This document shows positions 2,518 through 9,499 of a DNA stretch of 12,376 nucleotides, in pieces; position 1 is the first letter of the stretch, and every line of letters starts with the position of its first letter. Origin of the DNA: a virus (Duplodnaviria > Heunggongvirae > Uroviricota > Caudoviricetes); IMG/VR virus record IMGVR_UViG_2547132271_000006; one strand, written 5' to 3'. A model generated the notes under the pieces. That model searched no databases. It was not told the DNA's origin and saw nothing but the letters and a program-made list of their open reading frames with translations. The translations under genes and the position numbers were made by a program.

Positions 2518-4659
2518 TTATCCGGCTTCTTCTTCCTCCTGTTCAGGTGCGAAAAGCAGGATATATGCACGTTGCCGGGCGTTATTCTGATGTTTCAGAC
2601 GCGGTGTTCTGCCCTGCCAGCCTCTGCCACTGGTGGGTTTCTTAAGCATCCCGGCATCATGCAGTACCTGCGCCACCGCGTCCTTGTTAAAGCCTCTGGC
2701 AACGTGTTCTTTAAACGGTGCCGGAAGCACGTAAAACAACATCGGGTCATCATACCGTTCGCCCTTGTCCCGGTAGCCCATCAGCTCACTAATGGGAAAA
2801 TCTCGCGGATCATAATCCACGGGTGCAAATTTGCTCATGCCCCAGGCGTTAAGAAATGCCACTGCCTGTTCTGCAATCTGCTGGTGTTCTTTGTTCCCGG
2901 TGCCAAACTCTTTCACCCAGGCATTAAAGCTGCGCTGTATCGCATCCCGGCACCCCTGCGCATCCCATCCGGTGATATGGCCTGACAGCACCAGCGCCGC
3001 TTCCATGATGGCGAATCGCTCCCCGACGCGGTGGACCTGCTCGCCGTAGTTGTCCGGGATAAGTCCGCGCCAGCGTTCCCTTGCGGCTTCTGTGGCCTCC
3101 CTCGCTGCCTGCTGGTGGTCTGCCAGCCAGAGCACCCACTCACGCCCTGCGGTGCCATGATGCGCCATACAGGCCGCTCTGAGCGCATCAGCATGAGCTT
3201 TACCGGACGGCATCCCGTGAAATTCCGTGGCCTTCTCCAGTGGCACATTAAGCAGGCGCACCAGTTGCCCCGCTTTGGGCTTCATGCCTGCGGCTGCAAG
3301 AAAGGTTTCTATGTCCATTTCTCCGGTACTGATGGCGACAGTTCGCCAGCGTTTAAGCTCCCGGTTACCGCCTTCCTTTGCGCCCTGTAGTTTCCCCACA
3401 CCGTTAAACAGCGTATAGGCAGACGTTGCCACGGCGCGGGCATCACTGCCCTGACCAACCTCATCCAGTGGCATCAGGCCGTCATTGTGCGCCTGTGCTT
3501 CGTTAGCAATACCCAGCGCAGTACCGTACCAGGTGAGGCGCAGTAAATCCGGGTTACCGTACAGACTGCTGGCGATGTTTGCCGTGGTGGTTTTCCCGGC
3601 GCTGGACTGCTGGAAGAAATGGACGCCGAAGCCATCCGCACCCACCAGCCCGACCAGTGGCGCGGCAAGTGCTGCCGCCACGCCCAGCATCATGGAAGGA
3701 TTACCCGCCACCAGCGCGGCGACGTTCTCCCGCCAGCTCTGCGCCGTTCCTGCACAGGTGTAACCGGAAGCCGTCGCGCTGTGACCGTAAAACAGGACCT
3801 TCCGGCCCGCCTCGCCGATGATTTCCCCGTCCGGCATGATGTATGCGCCGTGCTGCCATCCGGTCAGGCTGGTGATGTGCCAGAGTTCCCCTGTACCACT
3901 GCGCAACAGGTGATCGGCAAGGATGGCGCGAAAGTTATTTTTAGCCGTGACAGAAAGCCCACCAGCACGTAACCGCGACCAGCCTTCACGCTCGCCAGTA
4001 TCACGCATGGGTATCGCTTCGGTGTGTGCTGTACGCGCGCCTGCGGGCTTCCAGCGCAGAACAAGAAACCGCTCGGACTCATCCGCGCCAATGCCCACCA
4101 CCTCAAGCGGATCACACAACCACTGACCGGGGCGGGTAACTTCCCCGGTCTGCTTATCAATCTTTGGCGTTACCCAGTACAGACCGTCAGGGCGGGCCTC
4201 CACACAGGGGGCCAGCTCATCCACCGGCGCAGGTTTGCCCTCTGCCCGTAGTACCTCTTCCACCAGGCTTTCTTCCCCGCGTTCGTGCTGTTCGCGTATC
4301 CGGTTCAGGTAGTCGCGCCAGTCTTCCGGGTGCTGGTCAGGTATCCCCCTGTATAACTTCGCTTCCTGTACGCCCGCCAGCGCCAGCTTTTCAGCAATGG
4401 CATTAATCTGAATGGGCTTAATATCTCCGGCATGATAGAGGCGGGCGTACTTACACCCGTTATCGATAATGCGCAGGTTCGCCAGGTCTGCCAGTTGCTT
4501 TGGCCCCAGCCAGACAGGCGGCGTTTTATCTGCGGCAATTTTTAATCCCCAGTCCTCTTCCCATGTCTTAGCGTGAGCGAAGGCATCAGCCCCGGCAAAG
4601 ATAACCACCTCAACATGTTTATCTTTCGGTTGATGCTTAAGGTTCGGTGCGTTCTTCAT
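2518..4659 (-). CDS. Replication initiation protein, primase/helicase-like P-loop NTPase (P4 alpha-type / DUF927-like), 713 aa
   Basis: Track ORF; Walker A-like FQQSSAGKTTT, Walker B-like MPLDEVGQGS, acidic C-terminal tail; GAGG RBS 7 nt upstream of ATG; start overlaps upstream ORF stop (ATGA). Confidence 0.7.
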   Translation of the reverse strand: MKNAPNLKHQPKDKHVEVVIFAGADAFAHAKTWEEDWGLKIAADKTPPVWLGPKQLADLANLRIIDNGCKYARLYHAGDIKPIQINAIAEKLALAGVQEAKLYRGIPDQHPEDWRDYLNRIREQHERGEESLVEEVLRAEGKPAPVDELAPCVEARPDGLYWVTPKIDKQTGEVTRPGQWLCDPLEVVGIGADESERFLVLRWKPAGARTAHTEAIPMRDTGEREGWSRLRAGGLSVTAKNNFRAILADHLLRSGTGELWHITSLTGWQHGAYIMPDGEIIGEAGRKVLFYGHSATASGYTCAGTAQSWRENVAALVAGNPSMMLGVAAALAAPLVGLVGADGFGVHFFQQSSAGKTTTANIASSLYGNPDLLRLTWYGTALGIANEAQAHNDGLMPLDEVGQGSDARAVATSAYTLFNGVGKLQGAKEGGNRELKRWRTVAISTGEMDIETFLAAAGMKPKAGQLVRLLNVPLEKATEFHGMPSGKAHADALRAACMAHHGTAGREWVLWLADHQQAAREATEAARERWRGLIPDNYGEQVHRVGERFAIMEAALVLSGHITGWDAQGCRDAIQRSFNAWVKEFGTGNKEHQQIAEQAVAFLNAWGMSKFAPVDYDPRDFPISELMGYRDKGERYDDPMLFYVLPAPFKEHVARGFNKDAVAQVLHDAGMLKKPTSGRGWQGRTPRLKHQNNARQRAYILLFAPEQEEEEAG

Positions 4660-4910: not shown

Positions 4911-5108
4911 TTATGCTGCTGGTGGTGTAACGGTAAATCCGGCTATTTTTGCCGCTTCCAGAAAACCGTCCAGGTTACTGACAAACTCATTCTTCTGTAG
5001 CGTATAGCCGCCTGTGGCAGTGCCTTTTTCCACGCTAACCAGGACAAGCCCGGTGAAGTCCGGTCGCGCCGGAATGGTAACCGTGAAGGTCAGGGAGTGA
5101 TTACGCAT
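4911..5108 (-). CDS. Hypothetical protein, 65 aa (MRNHSLTFTVTIPARPDFTG...)
   Basis: Internal ATG of track ORF 4911..5222, chosen because it is preceded by GGAGG at 6-nt spacing and overlaps the upstream stop codon by 8 nt. Confidence 0.5.
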   Translation of the reverse strand: MRNHSLTFTVTIPARPDFTGLVLVSVEKGTATGGYTLQKNEFVSNLDGFLEAAKIAGFTVTPPAA

Positions 5109-5643
5109 GGTCTGCCTCCACATACGCGACACCCGCCACATCAAGCGCCTGTTTAAAACGGCAAAGCATTTCACGGCGTTCGCGGTACAGGGCCAGCACG
5201 AAGGGATCGAGTGTGGCTTCAATTTCGGCAGGATAACGACGGACGAAAGGCAGAAGGACGACGCCCTGACAGCGGTGTGGCGTGGTGGATTTCACCTGGT
5301 CAGCCAGCATATTCACCAGGTCATGTAACAGCCCGGTAAGCGGCTGGATCATGTCACGGGGCAATGTATCAGCCACCAGCGCCTTTGCCAGCGTGAGGCA
5401 GTATTCCAGCGTCAGGCTTTCATCAGGCCAGTACTCTGACAGATCGGATGCGGTATTGTCCGGCAGGGTAAGCACCGGATCCGCATGGTAGGCCGCTGTC
5501 AGTGCCTCCAGTGATGTGACAAGGTATTTGCACATCGCCCGGTGTTCCGTGCTGCTGCGGTATTCCATCAGCCCGCACACCAGCGCGGCGCACTCACCCG
5601 CCAGATGAAACAGCTCAACTCCTGCGGGGATCGGCTTATTCAT
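5101..5643 (-). CDS. Hypothetical protein, 180 aa (MNKPIPAGVELFHLAGECAALVCGLMEY...)
   Basis: C-terminal portion of track ORF 5101..6273; ATG at 5643 overlaps the stop of the upstream 65-aa gene; protein-like composition unlike the sequence upstream in that frame. Confidence 0.55.
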   Translation of the reverse strand: MNKPIPAGVELFHLAGECAALVCGLMEYRSSTEHRAMCKYLVTSLEALTAAYHADPVLTLPDNTASDLSEYWPDESLTLEYCLTLAKALVADTLPRDMIQPLTGLLHDLVNMLADQVKSTTPHRCQGVVLLPFVRRYPAEIEATLDPFVLALYRERREMLCRFKQALDVAGVAYVEADHA

Positions 5644-5833
5644 GATGCGCCCCCGTAGCGGGCAGGCGACCCGCAAAGAAGCAGACATTTTCCCGTGCAA
5701 GCTGGCGACGGGCTTCACGTTCGCTGGTGGCGGTAATGTGATGGATTGTTGCGGTAATGGTCGGGCAGTCGCGGCGAACGGCAGCGATAAGCCAGACGAA
5801 TTGCGGGCAGAACGGGGTGAGGGTAGTAGCCAT
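5636..5833 (-). CDS. Hypothetical small Cys/His-containing protein, 65 aa (MATTLTPFCPQFVWLIAAVRRDCPTITATIHHITATSEREARRQLARENVCFFAGRLPATGAHHE)
   Basis: Track ORF; strong RBS AAGGAGG 7 nt upstream of ATG; stop overlaps next gene's start. Confidence 0.6.
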   Translation of the reverse strand: MATTLTPFCPQFVWLIAAVRRDCPTITATIHHITATSEREARRQLARENVCFFAGRLPATGAHHE

Positions 5834-5843
5834 AAGGCAGCCT

Positions 5844-5930
5844 CCTTTGTGTTTAAGGAGTCACCGCCTGAGTTCTCACGCTCATAAGGGGCGGTGACGC
5901 TGGCGGGGGTGAGAAAACCGGACACAAAGG
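5844..5930 (-). promoter_or_regulatory. Structured mRNA leader: nested 9-bp inverted repeats able to sequester the RBS of the 65-aa gene
   Basis: Plus-strand CCTTTGTGT (5844-5852) vs ACACAAAGG (5922-5930); inner GTCACCGCC (5860-5868) vs GGCGGTGAC (5890-5898); the outer arm overlaps the AAGGAGG Shine-Dalgarno. Confidence 0.4.
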
Positions 5931-6004
5931 GAACCGGCCAGCCCGAAGGCTGCCCCACCAGCGCCACCATTGATACGGTCTGTTTTGCGGGTATGCGCTG
6001 GCAC

Positions 6005-6037
6005 GACACAAAAAAAGACGCTTTCGGCGTCTGTGTC
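6005..6037 (-). terminator. Intrinsic terminator inside the same-strand gene cluster, between the alpA-side genes and the replication operon
   Basis: Minus strand reads GACACAGACGCCGAAAGCGTCTTTTTTTGTGTC: 6-bp stem AGACGC/GCGTCT, loop CGAAA, T7 tail. Confidence 0.55.
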
Positions 6038-6039
6038 GC

Positions 6040-6273
6040 CTTTGTGTTAAACGGGTTCTCACGCCCGGCTGTGGATTTTGCCACAACGGGAATACTGTAA
6101 ATCCTGTTCAGGGAGGCAGGCAAGCGGTTTTTATTTTTTCCGGTGTCAGGTTTTGACAGGTTGTTGCCAGCCAGGATAACGAAAATATCGCGCTTGTCTG
6201 CGGTTAAAATACGCTTCTGGCTGGTGGCAGGGTGAGCGATGCCCTGACCGTGAAGGTCATTAATTGATTTCAT
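6040..6273 (-). CDS. ORF of unclear status (MKSINDLHGQGIAHPATSQKRILTADKRDIFVILAGNNLSKPDTG...): plausible coding start, 3' end cannot be called
   Basis: ATG at 6273 with AGGA upstream and E. coli-like codon choice in the first ~70 codons, but the frame stays open through the terminator hairpin and on to 5101; possibly a frameshifted pseudogene or an untranslated leader. Confidence 0.25.
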
Positions 6274-6287
6274 TATTTCAGTTCCTG

Positions 6288-6719
6288 TCAGGCAGCGTTC
6301 TGGTTATCCGGGTACATCATGAGGATGCTTTCGATGGTCTCCGGGGAAAGGCTCCCGTAGCCACCAGTACTGGCGCACTGATTGACCAGTTTAATGACCT
6401 TAAGCACATCCGCACGGCAGGCAAAGCGGTAGCGAAGATGCGCCCCTATGCCATCGGCATTGGCTTCTTCTGAACGCGCCAGGCAGATATCAAGGCGGCG
6501 CTCCAGTTCACTGGCGTAATTGCGGCCTGATGAAAGATGGCAGTGGCGCAGAATATCGTTTTCAGTCCAGCCACCAGCACCAGTGCAAAGCATATAAACG
6601 CGGGCGCGGTGCTTCTTCGGTGTGCGTCTCGCTTGTGTGCGGCTGGTGGTGGGGATAACATCAGACGGGCGAATATCTGTGTTAGCCGCCTGCTGTTCGG
6701 GGCGGTTTTCTTTTTTCAT
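6288..6719 (-). CDS. Hypothetical protein, 143 aa, basic low-complexity N-terminus; translationally coupled to alpA
   Basis: Track ORF; GAGG RBS; ATG overlaps the alpA stop (ATGA). Confidence 0.65.
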   Translation of the reverse strand: MKKENRPEQQAANTDIRPSDVIPTTSRTQARRTPKKHRARVYMLCTGAGGWTENDILRHCHLSSGRNYASELERRLDICLARSEEANADGIGAHLRYRFACRADVLKVIKLVNQCASTGGYGSLSPETIESILMMYPDNQNAA

Positions 6720-6928
6720 TGCGCCACCTCGCCGCGTGATTCAAATACACGATCATTTATCCATTTATTAACTTCGTCTTCAAACCAACCAACACGGCGT
6801 AGGCCAATGCGAAATCCTCGCGGAAATTCGCCAGCGTTAATCATCTCCTGAAATGCGCTATCTGATTTAATGCGTAAAATCATTTTTACTTCTTTTTTGA
6901 GAAGGATCTTTCTTTCTTCTGATGTCAT
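6716..6928 (-). CDS. alpA: AlpA-family small DNA-binding regulator (phage/island transcriptional regulator, excisionase-like), 70 aa
   Basis: Pattern LLKKEVKMILRIKSDSAFQEMINAGEFPRGFRIGLRRVGWFEDEVNKWI fits the AlpA/MerR-like HTH family; the track start at 6946 is a TTG codon, the first ATG is at 6928. Confidence 0.7.
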   Translation of the reverse strand: MTSEERKILLKKEVKMILRIKSDSAFQEMINAGEFPRGFRIGLRRVGWFEDEVNKWINDRVFESRGEVAQ

Positions 6929-6989
6929 TTGGTTAATCTCATTCAATACCGATTAATTCCGGCGGTGTAGGAATACTGGCATGATGAGA

Positions 6990-7055
6990 TAGGGTGAGGG
7001 CAACACTATTTAGGGTGAGGGTAGGTTACCGTGAGGGTCCGGGGTGGTTACCCTC
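6990..7055. repeat. AGGGTGAGGG direct repeats plus GAGGGT...ACCCTC inverted repeat in the intergenic region upstream of alpA (candidate operator)
   Basis: AGGGTGAGGG at 6991-7000 and 7012-7021, GTGAGGG at 7031-7037, inverted ACCCTC at 7050-7055, GGTTACC at 7024-7030 and 7046-7052. Confidence 0.4.
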
Positions 7056-7065
7056 TCGGTAGATG

Positions 7066-7794
7066 TTAAGCCACTTTTGATGGGGTGCGATCGATTGGGC
7101 AAGCGATTTTTTCGATAGCTTTGGCTGTGGATTCAACAAATCCGTAACTGGTTTTAAGCTCTGTAATTATGGCCTGCTGGTTAACTCTGGTGCCATTATT
7201 GTTAGGGTCATACTCTGCCCATTCACAATTCCTTATCCTGATAGCCTGATACAGAGGGTCTCTTTCTACGCCTCCGATAAACTTACCCAAGTGAAGAGGA
7301 TACGATTTTTTTAAAACCTCAATATCTCTTTCTAGTGCGGTAATTTTATTCTTAAGTTCGGATATCACTTGTGATTCTTGATTTGTACGTGATGGCGGCT
7401 GTAATCCCACTTCGTAGGGGGGGGTAATTATAATGGCATTATATTCTATGAACTCATTTTCAACCCAAGGCCAGATGTCCTTTGCCAGAAAGTTAGCATC
7501 AACTATATGTGTGTCGATATTAATATCGTCATTTTTAACTAAGCTTAAGGCATCAACTGGGAGATTCCATGAAGGGTCAGTATATGTGTAGGCTTTCAGT
7601 GGGATAACTTCTTTCAATTTAATAGCTTGACATATAATTTCTTTGAATGTTGAAGCTTTCTCATCGCTAATGTAGCCACTGACAATATTTGGATCAAGAG
7701 TATCGTACTCACCGGATAAGCCTGCCATAACTAAAGCTGCTTGTTCTAATGTCACAATTCTGAGTCGTTTAATATGGAAAGGTAAATCAATCAT
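7066..7794 (-). CDS. Hypothetical cargo protein, 242 aa, markedly AT-rich; no recognisable motif; central predicted coiled-coil segment
   Basis: Track ORF 7066..7797 (track start is GTG; ATG at 7794 has a GAGGTG RBS); GC content clearly below the flanking element genes; sits between int and alpA. Confidence 0.7.
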   Translation of the reverse strand: MIDLPFHIKRLRIVTLEQAALVMAGLSGEYDTLDPNIVSGYISDEKASTFKEIICQAIKLKEVIPLKAYTYTDPSWNLPVDALSLVKNDDINIDTHIVDANFLAKDIWPWVENEFIEYNAIIITPPYEVGLQPPSRTNQESQVISELKNKITALERDIEVLKKSYPLHLGKFIGGVERDPLYQAIRIRNCEWAEYDPNNNGTRVNQQAIITELKTSYGFVESTAKAIEKIACPIDRTPSKVA

Positions 7795-7974
7795 CACGCC
7801 ACCTCACGCCCTCTATCATGGAGGCCGCGCCAACCCGCAGAGGTGTACGGGAATTCGGGAGCTACCCTAGACGCGGCTTATTCTGTTACCGTCGGCTTTC
7901 TTCGGTTTTGCCCATGATAGATCGTTTTCTGAACGCTTGCATTGCAAGACTGTGTGAATAATCAGCTTGTGTTT

Positions 7975-9216
7975 TTATACAGCTCTAATTCCTCTCATTC
8001 CTGTTGCTAGTGTCACTCCCGTGGATGCGGTTTCCACAAATTCCCCCCACCAGCGCATCAACACAATACGCTTTTCAAGATAGTTACTCCGGTTATATGC
8101 CCTGCGAACTTCATTGGTGTCTACATGTGCCAGCGCCGCTTCTATCACATCAGGATCGAAGCCTTCTTCGTTGGCTGCGGTGCTGAATATGGCCCGTAAC
8201 CCGTGGGAAACAAGGACGCCTTGATACCCCATACGCCTTAACGCAGCATTGGCGCTTTGGCTGCTCATAGGTAATGTCGGTTTTTTAAAGCTGGGGAACA
8301 CATATTCACGATGGGCGCTAATAGGCTTCATTGCTTCCAGCACGGCTAATGCCTGCTCACATAAGGGAATGATGTGATCCCGGCGCATCTTCATGCGACC
8401 TGCTGGAATCGTCCAGGTTTTATCCGTCAGGTTGATTTCTTCCCATCGTGTTTCTGCTGCCTCTACAGGTCGCGTGACGGTTAAAAGCTGCCATTCAATG
8501 AGTAATCGCGTTTGCCGCTCTATGCTGGCAATGGATAGTGTCTGCATGAGGTCGGGTAACTGCTCCGGCCTGATGGTTGGCATATGTTTTTTAACTGGGG
8601 TAGGGAAGGCCTTTCTGACATTTGAGGCGGTATTGATCTCTATCAGTCCACTATTGGCGGCAAAATCCATCACTTCATTGATGCGCTGTAGAACGCGTTT
8701 TAGTGTTTCAAGATTGCCCCGCGCTTTAATCGGCTCCAGAACGGTGACGAACTTACGGGCCGTCAGTTCGTTAATGGGAGTATTTCCAATGTCAGGGAAT
8801 ACGTACTTTTCCAGCGAACGCCATATGTCTTTGATGGTATTGGCAGCAAGGTTCTGGCTTTTTTTCATCTCGTACCAGTCAGCGGCGACCTTTTTGAATG
8901 TGTTCCCCCGGCGCAGTTCCTCTGCTTCACGTTTTTGTTGCTGGTGGTGTTGTGGATCAATATCTCGGGCTAAAAGTGATTTAGCTTTCTCTCTACGTTC
9001 TCTGGCATCCGCTAAAGAAAGATCAGGATAATTACCAAGAGTCCATGTAGTACGCTTGCCAGTATCAGGCTTGTAGTAACGAAGCTGCCATGTCTTCACC
9101 CCCGAAGGTTTTACGATCAGAATTAATCCGCCACCATCGGTAAGGGTGGTTTCTTTATCGTGAGCTTTGGCATTTTTTATTTGAGTGGCGGTGAGTGGGG
9201 CGGTTTTGATGGCCAT
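7975..9216 (-). CDS. int: P4-type tyrosine integrase (site-specific recombinase), 413 aa
   Basis: N-terminal arm-binding-type domain (LTDGGGLILIVKPSGVKTWQLRY), C-terminal catalytic region with HGLRAIFST (H-x-x-R) and catalytic Tyr context (RRAYNRSNYLEKR); adjacent to tRNA 3' end. Confidence 0.9.
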   Translation of the reverse strand: MAIKTAPLTATQIKNAKAHDKETTLTDGGGLILIVKPSGVKTWQLRYYKPDTGKRTTWTLGNYPDLSLADARERREKAKSLLARDIDPQHHQQQKREAEELRRGNTFKKVAADWYEMKKSQNLAANTIKDIWRSLEKYVFPDIGNTPINELTARKFVTVLEPIKARGNLETLKRVLQRINEVMDFAANSGLIEINTASNVRKAFPTPVKKHMPTIRPEQLPDLMQTLSIASIERQTRLLIEWQLLTVTRPVEAAETRWEEINLTDKTWTIPAGRMKMRRDHIIPLCEQALAVLEAMKPISAHREYVFPSFKKPTLPMSSQSANAALRRMGYQGVLVSHGLRAIFSTAANEEGFDPDVIEAALAHVDTNEVRRAYNRSNYLEKRIVLMRWWGEFVETASTGVTLATGMRGIRAV

Positions 9217-9230
9217 AGGGCTAGCTCGCT

Positions 9231-9305
9231 TGGGACTTGGTAATGTTTTGGGACTAGGATTTTTAGGACTAGCCGCTATCTAGTCCCAAATTTAGTCCCA
9301 AAAAT
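9231..9305. repeat. Dyad of four TAGTCCCAAA-type sites upstream of int (two inverted, two direct); candidate operator / integrase arm sites
   Basis: TGGGACTA at 9249-9256, TAGGACTA at 9265-9272, TAGTCCCAAA at 9281-9290, TAGTCCCAAAAA at 9294-9305, plus GGGACT at 9232-9237. Confidence 0.5.
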
Positions 9306-9422: not shown

Positions 9423-9499
9423 TGGTCGGCACGAGAGGATTTGAACCTCCGACCCCCGACACCCCATGACGGTGCGCTACCAGGCTGCGCTACGTGCCG
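9423..9499 (-). tRNA. proL: tRNA-Pro (anticodon GGG), integration target of the element
   Basis: Reverse complement reads CGGCACGTAGCGCAGCCTGGTAGCGCACCGTCATGGGGTGTCGGGGGTCGGAGGTTCAAATCCTCTCGTGCCGACCA, a 77-nt cloverleaf-compatible sequence with encoded CCA. Confidence 0.9.

Follow-up and report, generated by a model that had tools for sequence, protein, structure and literature searches.

What does the AT-rich gene between the integrase gene and alpA of a small Escherichia satellite do? The alpA gene of Gram-negative PICIs is a helper-induced, autoactivating master switch (PMC6092414; PMC11773190), and how helpers control it is explicitly an open question in Gram-negative PICIs, cf-PICIs and PICMIs (PMC6092414; PMC10803314). 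We analysed the gene, here called X, in a window of 12,376 nucleotides (the whole stretch of DNA under study). A first reading of this sequence, referred to below as the original prediction, had put X down as candidate anti-phage or accessory cargo.

The element is a Gram-negative PICI-type satellite

The window contains an island of ~8.5 kb that runs from tRNA-Pro(GGG) (9423–9499) to a narP-like gene (67–744), narP being the gene at the far flank in the syntenic E. coli locus. All element genes are on the minus strand (Table 1). The yejM–tRNA-Pro junction is present in E. coli genomes; all 5,426 complete E. coli genomes match the yejL–yejM–tRNA-Pro flank at 94% identity, and the element integrase is 99% identical to that of Escherichia sp. 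MOD1-EC7003. Judged by these matches, the window comes from the chromosome of an Escherichia other than E. coli. The far end of the element is marked by a second, imperfect copy of the 3′ part of the tRNA (897–915). The sequence AGTCCCAAA occurs in seven copies clustered at both element ends (972–992 and 9229–9302) and is a candidate integrase arm-type site, and ori-like 21-bp repeats lie downstream of the primase gene.

We used the definition of Gram-negative PICIs as int–alpA–pri satellites (Fillol-Salom 2018). The int, alpA and primase genes are co-oriented (minus strand), att-type repeats flank the element beside tRNA-Pro(GGG), and no phage structural genes were found in the element in the ORF list or with Pfam/PHROGs. 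By this gene content the element is a "classical" Gram-negative PICI-type satellite. The original prediction had taken the int-proximal position for the cargo slot of a P4-like satellite. However, no psu-, delta- or sid-like ORFs were present among the listed element ORFs of at least 50 aa (the seven largest scanned with Pfam/PHROGs), no cos site was identified, and the borders of the slot are int and alpA. With psu, delta and sid missing, the element is not P4-like.

Table 1. Positions of gene X, its modules and its surroundings in the window.
Feature	Position	Strand	Remarks
int, P4-type tyrosine integrase	7975–9216	minus	Pfam; upstream neighbour of X
10-nt perfect inverted repeat, 7812–7821 / 7912–7921	7812–7921	minus	outer stem around RNA motif in MFE fold
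Rfam RF02996 int-alpA RNA motif, 5′ leader of X	7810–7877	minus	43.1 bits vs gathering score 35.8; own model R1 81.6 bits
Shine–Dalgarno sequence GAGGTG of X	7800–7805	minus	inside conserved block GCGTGAGGTGGCG, which follows the RNA motif in many loci
X, 242-aa CDS	7066–7794	minus	member of an unannotated modular family upstream of alpA
N-terminal module of X, residues 1–122, alpha/beta	7429–7794	minus	conserved within "XN" type; no similarity to PDB
Coiled-coil segment of X, residues 137–164	7303–7386	minus	AF2 long helix; only GCN4/coiled-coil PDB matches
C-terminal three-helix domain of X, residues 176–236	7087–7269	minus	covaries with downstream repeats
X–alpA intergenic region, operator-like array	6929–7065	minus	five ACCCT/AGGGT half-sites
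Inverted repeat TACCGAGAGGGT / ACCCTCACGGTA	7050–7061 / 7027–7038		X–alpA spacer
Direct repeats ACCCTCACCCTA and GCCCTCACCCTA	7011–7022 and 6990–7001		X–alpA spacer
CATGCCAG and CCGGAAT-N3-CGGTAT	6976–6983 and 6946–6962		X–alpA spacer; found across related elements compared
alpA, 70 aa from ATG 6928	6716–6928	minus	Pfam PF05930 Phage_AlpA, 34.6 bits vs gathering threshold 21; proposed regulatory target
143-aa gene		minus	next after alpA in element gene order
isrK, c4-a1b1 and C4 antisense RNAs	6011–6100 and 5887–5974	minus	
Small PHROG/DUF4222 genes		minus	between C4-type RNAs and primase in listed gene order
DUF927 primase	2518–4659	minus	

X is an intact gene in a conserved low-GC slot

The X ORF is intact on the minus strand (7066–7797 from GTG), and the ATG at 7794 is its most likely start. 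The predicted 242-aa gene is therefore present, with a Shine–Dalgarno sequence, between int and alpA. The extent originally given to it, 7066–7970, was right for the part that is the CDS but did not stand as a single feature, since it takes in a separate int-alpA RNA motif. The int gene is probably co-transcribed with X or adjacent upstream. A consensus promoter scan of the gene strand found no sigma-70-like promoter between 6600 and 8100, and the promoter/terminator consensus scan of this strand gave nothing useful.

The GC content of X is 39.0% (GC3 34.6%), compared with 48.7% for int, 55.8% for the 143-aa gene and 55–59% for the genes downstream of alpA. X had been described as clearly lower in GC than every neighbouring element gene, but alpA is nearly its equal at 40.8% (GC3 33.8%), and the two form one AT-rich block between int and the 143-aa gene. 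Orthologues of X occupy the same place, int–X–alpA, in Salmonella, Dickeya and Klebsiella (all at yejM–tRNA-Pro) and in Pectobacterium (at smpB), and in every related element examined the int–alpA interval had a GC fraction of 0.33–0.45 as against 0.47–0.58 for int. As alpA and every orthologous slot examined are similarly AT-rich, low GC is a conserved property of the slot and not the mark of recent acquisition that it had been read as.

X belongs to an unannotated family of modular proteins

Only 13 clusters resembled X in an index of 5.8 billion proteins, just four proteins were retrieved by a word-index search with the profile of the C-module, and a full HMMER scan of 1.84 billion representatives recovered 123 relatives, among which the two modules of X also occur separately. 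Named family members come from Enterobacterales, Pasteurellaceae and Orbaceae and are always annotated "hypothetical protein". Of the 5,426 complete E. coli genomes, 119 (~2%) carry a family member, the distant DNA match being confined to the leader and the first codons, and none of these complete genomes contains a near match to X. In E. coli cq9, for instance, the locus order is tRNA-Gly–int–265-aa hypothetical protein–HTH regulator–AntA. No X homologue was found among 50,697 phage genomes (INPHARED).

The N-terminal module of X is paired elsewhere with at least four different C-terminal modules. The C-module consists of the coiled coil and three helices and bears the signature "DPLxxAIxIRNxEW...AIExxACPIxR"; D179, L181, A184, R188, W192, E228, C232, P233 and R236 are invariant in its C-terminal domain. 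AF2 predicts a long helix and a three-helix bundle for the C-module (pLDDT 84.5). The central coiled-coil-like segment noticed originally was borne out by this helix at residues 137–164, for which the PDB matches were of GCN4 type only.

X had also been described as lacking a recognisable catalytic motif or family, and family, profile and structure searches agreed. Pfam, PHROGs, NCBIfam and PADLOC found no family for X, and Pfam assigned none to 85 of its distant relatives. Foldseek returned no match at E < 0.1 for the full model against PDB and BFVD or for the C-module model against PDB, and PDB sequence profiles with the whole protein and with each domain matched coiled coils only. These searches found no known fold for X. 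We considered the N-module as a divergent AlpA/excisionase-like winged helix, but hhalign against an AlpA/HTH_17-type profile lent this no support (probability 0.35%); hhalign of the C-module against AlpA likewise gave nothing.

The family gene is coupled to alpA

We collected 65 IMG/VR viral-contig loci by the C-module signature and added the Mannheimia locus and another genome locus, for a total of 67. An AlpA-family ORF was found on the same strand, 28–258 bp downstream of the C-module gene, in 67/67 loci, and all eight downstream ORFs sampled passed the Pfam Phage_AlpA threshold. About half of the C-module loci had no integrase within 5 kb upstream, and in one the genes for capsid, portal and TerL lie upstream and the integrase at the opposite end. 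Since alpA is constant while about half of the loci have no nearby integrase, the link is to alpA and not to int.

An int-alpA RNA precedes the family gene

Repeats had been noted in both intergenic regions that flank X (7795–7974 and 6929–7065), and in both regions they are non-random. By covariance-model score, the upstream region is the int-alpA RNA, a bona fide member of Rfam RF02996, and it behaves as the 5′ leader of the gene family. The motif ends 16 nt before the ATG of X. An alignment of 15 instances showed compensatory changes in P1 and P3, and the covariance model built from it (R1) matched 61 of the 65 C-module loci. In 43 of the 65, the ATG of the C-module protein lies 3–22 nt after the RNA motif. 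In ~20 of them, the two modules are encoded by separate genes, and a gene of ~120 aa for the N-module only lies between the motif and the C-module gene, so that one architecture is present in split form.

R1 also matched the other loci that have an X-type N- or C-module gene (the window, L001, L003–L005, L008, L016, L018, L019, L023, L024 and L094), independently of the C-type; the exceptions among these integrase- or protein-derived loci were L015 and L093. No match was found in elements without an X-type gene (L011, L012, L013, L020, L021, L025 and L026) or in ~45 distant integrase loci. Rfam lists RF02996 as an sRNA "between int and alpA". Unlike this description, the motif occurs also where no int is nearby and is absent from int–alpA elements that have no family gene. 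Its placement before the family gene suggests a cis-acting leader rather than, or besides, a trans-acting sRNA, and gives this orphan motif a probable biological context.

The downstream repeats change with the C-module

In the window, five ACCCT/AGGGT half-sites fall in the 137-nt X–alpA spacer (36.5/kb) as compared with 16 in the remaining 12.25 kb (1.3/kb). The same enrichment was seen in 59 non-redundant C-module loci, with a half-site density of 24.8/kb in the spacer versus 1.2/kb elsewhere. The palindrome ACCCTNAGGGT, with at most one mismatch, was found 96 times in 10.3 kb of spacer and four times in 521 kb of other sequence, a more than 1000-fold enrichment; the E. coli cq9 example has five perfect palindromes. 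Control spacers, which follow other C-types or no gene, had 0–1 half-sites.

Other C-modules are followed by other repeats. The TTACCAAC repeat is present in 4–7 copies in L008, L015, L018, L023 and L024, whatever the N-type, the ACTTCAAA repeat in L016 and L019, and an ACCCA-type repeat in L005. Within the C-module family, the subgroup IRNxEW pairs with ACCCTnAGGGT, ARKxYW with AGGGTGATAG / CTATCACCCT, and VRNKYW with CCCTATAT. AlpA proteins encoded beside three other repeat types are 80–82% identical to the AlpA of the window, whereas those beside the same ACCCT motif are only 26–37% identical to it, so the repeat type does not track AlpA. It changes with the type of the C-module.

The Salmonella loci L001 and L005 illustrate how such a change can occur. 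From int through the leader and 40 nt into X, their DNA is 92–100% identical. Identity is only ~30–50% across the C-module, the repeats and the initial 60 nt of alpA, beyond which it is back at 85–100%. As read from this comparison, the C-module and the repeats have been exchanged together between otherwise near-identical elements. In principle, mere physical linkage could account for the co-transfer.

We considered two other functions for the repeats and rejected both. Against partition or iteron/origin sites stand the lack of a partner ATPase and the place of the ori-like repeats, downstream of the primase gene; against integrase arm sites stands the clustering of the candidate arm sites at the element ends.

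The covariation also bears on the reading of X as a helper-directed factor, that is, an antirepressor or derepressor (like P4 epsilon or Ash) or an interference protein that is merely co-located with alpA, the repeats being part of the alpA promoter and bound by something else. Gram-negative PICIs typically have domain-swapping regulators and antirepressors (the Bro-N network; PMC10111431), the variable N-modules suggest partner-specific protein binding, and separate genes for the N- and C-modules would suit such a role. However, this reading accounts neither for a repeat type that goes with the C-module subgroup instead of AlpA nor for the exchange of C-module and repeats as a block, and we regard it as very improbable.

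A further alternative is that X acts in excision. The PICMIs, minimalist satellites of Vibrionaceae, have genes of unknown function between int and alpA (iolg/icg, 13 families), and a gene in this position was essential for activation in one case tested (Barcia-Cruz et al, 2024; PMC10803314). X would then be the iolg/icg counterpart, an architectural or accessory protein in an Int–AlpA excisive complex and not a transcription regulator. Its position and orientation match, the iolg of PICMI115 is constitutive with int and essential for helper-induced excision and transfer (PMC10803314), and the X homologue of L015 starts 3 nt after int. Against this, the cognate repeats are ~2.4 kb from the att core, the candidate arm sites AGTCCCAAA being at the element ends instead, and the gene stays beside alpA in the approximately half of loci that have no nearby integrase. 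We consider this role unlikely. The cofactor and regulator roles are not mutually exclusive; IOLG itself might regulate alpA.

The slot is variable, but the family is not free cargo

Among close integrase relatives, the int–alpA interval is always ~0.85–1.4 kb long and low in GC, and a co-oriented gene lies in it. The encoded proteins are mosaics of several N-types and several C-types; at least six are unrelated or mosaic, and those of L013, L020, L021 and L026 are unrelated. E. coli 042 and C21 have related proL elements in which the slot is without a gene, and the same holds for EcCICFT073 by published ORF numbering. Because many related satellites have no slot gene, X cannot be a universal master regulator.

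Such variability speaks for the original view of X as anti-phage or other accessory cargo, in the form of a stand-alone defence, superinfection-exclusion or abortive-infection protein. The variability held up: the slot is empty in 042 and C21, mosaic in other relatives and different in L001 and L005. Free exchange as cargo did not, because the family is locked to alpA, the leader and the repeats. Additional points agree with an anti-phage role. X is AT-rich, satellites carry defence genes near int (PMC9122126), EcCIMP1 confers a superinfection immunity that lacks an explanation and carries a small gene of unknown function in its int–alpA interval (PMC11773190), and diversification of the N-module would fit an arms race.

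Other results count against it. Neither X nor any of six other element proteins matched a PADLOC family at E ≤ 0.1, no other defence signature was found, and X has a small helical architecture with no enzymatic, transmembrane, NTPase or other effector-like domain. The tie to alpA, the leader RNA and cognate repeats extends across orders of Gammaproteobacteria. Where real cargo is present, it lies upstream of the family gene: in the Mannheimia locus (L093), ParE, HTH and SocA-Panacea genes, of toxin–antitoxin type, separate int from the family gene, which stays beside alpA, and the cargo of L154 is likewise upstream. Moreover, the slot does not have the psu–int/cos setting that defines the P4 hotspot. 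A stand-alone anti-phage role for X is thus unsupported and would have to coexist with tight coupling to alpA; we rate it as quite unlikely. An AT-rich, int-proximal orphan gene in a satellite is not automatically defence cargo.

A putative gatekeeper of the alpA promoter

X is one member of a widespread but so far uncharacterised family and, by its conserved gene order, belongs to a three-part unit before alpA, made up of an RNA leader, a modular protein and cognate repeats: int-alpA RNA leader, variable N-module(s), coiled coil, three-helix C-domain, short-repeat array, alpA. We propose that X works as a dimer that binds DNA and acts as gatekeeper of the alpA promoter, and that its N-terminal sensor domain can be swapped, a reading to which we give about an even chance. 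The coiled coil would dimerise X, and the three-helix C-terminal domain would be a sequence-specific DNA-binding domain that recognises the ACCCT-type half-sites at 6990–7061, between the X stop codon and alpA. X bound at these repeats would gate transcription of alpA, which serves satellites of the Gram-negative PICI type as master activator/excisionase. The exchangeable N-module, as a putative sensor or partner-binding domain, would couple the gate to a signal, a helper-phage protein being the most plausible candidate. In this way X probably controls the timing of satellite activation.

Several observations count against such a model. Neither domain of X gave a DNA-binding fold or family by Pfam, Foldseek or PDB profiles, and residues 176–236 are approximately charge-neutral (8 K/R versus 9 D/E by hand count), which is unusual for a DNA-binding domain. 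The element also already carries a C4/isrK RNA immunity system.

If X does regulate alpA, we somewhat favour repression or gatekeeping over activation. As we read the sequences of the best-defined subgroup, the palindrome nearest the promoter lies immediately beside a conserved −10-like hexamer (TATGAT/TATGAA), a position that would favour repression. The loss-of-excision phenotype of PICMI iolg, on the other hand, is easier to reconcile with an activator or cofactor than with a repressor, and we therefore leave the sign of regulation undecided. What the locus offers is a concrete candidate for alpA control, with a protein family, its likely binding sites and a leader RNA.

Comparison with known systems

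The Stl/Rpr proteins of Gram-positive PICIs (SaPIs) are int-proximal, highly divergent two-part repressors in which one part binds operators at the promoter of the activation genes and the other senses a helper protein. This operator-binding and helper-sensing logic is the one proposed for X. The proteins differ in that Stl/Rpr has a Cro/C1-type HTH, whereas X has no Pfam HTH and no similarity to Stl/Rpr in sequence or fold. The DNA-binding part of Stl/Rpr is N-terminal and that proposed for X is C-terminal; Stl/Rpr genes are divergent from the promoter that they regulate, X is co-oriented with alpA, and an X-type gene is missing from some Gram-negative PICIs. It is possible, though we hold this broader idea only tentatively, that the X family, the RNA leader and the repeats are the missing helper-sensing switch of AlpA-type (Gram-negative) satellites, an Stl analogue with a novel, unrelated DNA-binding module and exchangeable sensors. 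If so, the Rfam int-alpA "sRNA" would be reassigned as a cis-acting leader that controls an X-family regulator.

The defence hotspot of P4 is the psu–int locus adjacent to cos (Rousset et al, 2022; PMC9122126). Like the X slot, it is an int-proximal locus of variable content in a satellite with a P4-type integrase, and the element described here also has a regulator of the AlpA/Vis kind, a primase resembling alpha and an RNA of the C4/CI type. However, psu forms a border of the P4 hotspot and cos is adjacent to it, whereas the X slot is bounded by int and alpA and has no psu. The P4 hotspot holds unrelated defence systems, while most variants of the X slot keep to a single architecture with the leader RNA and cognate repeats, and a few (L013, L020, L021 and L026) hold unrelated proteins.

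By analogy of place, the closest described entities to X are the iolg/icg genes of PICMIs. X likewise lies between int and alpA and is co-oriented with them, a likeness of position. The iolg gene overlaps int by 1–13 nt and icg is contiguous to it; the gene is absent from a few elements, and alpA is helper-induced whereas the int side is constitutive (PMC10803314). X does not overlap int but is separated from it by a 180-nt gap that holds RF02996. No RNA leader or cognate repeats are reported in the PICMI paper, which proposes a role in the excision complex and not in alpA control (PMC10803314). PICMIs integrate next to fis, and we found no fis gene beside any fetched X-family locus.

In heteroimmune temperate phages, the repressor and its operators are exchanged as a unit, the immunity cassette. 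The swap of a recognition module together with its cognate sites between near-identical elements, as in L001 and L005, follows the same pattern. X differs in fold or family, its binding is putative, and its target would be the activator gene of a satellite. If X acts as proposed, swapped "C-module + operator" cassettes would create heteroimmune lineages of satellites.

Variation of gene X and its surroundings at related loci

Gene X, the 242-aa gene between int and alpA, belongs to a family of modular proteins with an N-module, a coiled coil and a three-helix C-module. We found that its homologue is frameshifted or truncated in Pantoea stewartii, in one Enterobacteriaceae isolate and in Escherichia sp. 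KTE114, which points to decay of the gene in some domesticated elements. At other loci (L097-L101, L105, L107, L108, L112, L117-L123 and L133), the leader RNA (the int-alpA RNA motif) is followed by an N-module-only gene of ~ 120 aa and then by a separate 151-155-aa gene for the coiled coil and C-module. The N-module and the coiled-coil/C-module parts can therefore exist as separate polypeptides.

At two loci (L154, 3433-4300; L093, 5219-7912), additional genes separate the X-family member from the leader RNA or int. The L154 insert encodes a 288-aa protein in which a DnaQ-like 'VDIETAN' motif can be read, and that of Mannheimia L093 carries ParE toxin, HTH and SocA-Panacea genes. True cargo apparently enters upstream of the X-family gene, which stays next to alpA.

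Sequence elements upstream of alpA

The two motifs preceding alpA, CATGCCA(A/G) and CCGGAAT-N3-C(C)GGTAT, are common to the related elements compared, whatever the type of short repeat in their X-alpA spacers, and could represent core promoter elements or an AlpA autoregulatory site. Loci of the subgroup whose spacer repeats are ACCCTnAGGGT palindromes (L099, L107, L112, L160 and others) also have a conserved hairpin, CTCGTAA-N13-TTACGAGG, in the alpA 5′ region, 20-70 nt upstream of the gene. The Shine-Dalgarno sequence falls in the 3′ arm of this hairpin, and translational control of alpA is possible.

Island ends and the primase-narP interval

Sites of the AGTCCCAAA type occur nine times in the window, a number reached in 0 of 200 shuffles. 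Seven of these are grouped beside both ends of the island (972-992 and 9229-9302), and these clustered sites are candidate integrase arm-type sites. Similar to them is TGTCCCAAA, which is included in 21-bp repeats close to the primase gene; the 21-bp repeats have the appearance of replication-origin iterons of a satellite. The ~ 1.8-kb interval between primase and narP (745-2517) has a GC content of 45%, several small repeats and no ORF longer than ~ 90 aa, and may represent a late or accessory region of the satellite that has decayed. In relatives, SSB, ProQ/FinO, PerC, DUF4224 or HTH-peptidase genes occupy the corresponding interval.

Features of the satellite and X-family variants
Feature	Position	Strand	Remarks
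Imperfect copy of tRNA-Pro 3′ part, TGGCACGAGAAGATATGAA	897-915		Marks distal att site
21-bp tandem repeat ATGTTGTCCCAAAACTCCCTG	2349-2435 (and 2208-2234)		~ 4 copies; directly downstream of primase gene
C4 antisense RNA	5887-5974	minus	Rfam, 82 bits
isrK	6011-6087	minus	Rfam, 68 bits
c4-a1b1 target motif	6048-6100	minus	Rfam, 46.4 bits, slightly under 46.7 gathering score
CATGCCA(A/G) + CCGGAAT-N3-C(C)GGTAT direct repeat	6946-6983	minus	~ 20-50 nt before alpA start
Frameshifted/truncated X homologues	L016 7422-8224; L019 7383-8036		Also protein P0003 (Escherichia sp. KTE114)

RNA immunity genes

The stretch from the 143-aa gene to the next ORFs holds three RNA features, C4, isrK and c4-a1b1. 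Because they map there, a 390-aa ORF from the mechanical ORF list (5101-6273) lies partly over RNA genes, and it probably does not encode a genuine 390-aa protein. The trio, which is also present in most related loci, is an RNA immunity system of the P1/P7/P4 type.
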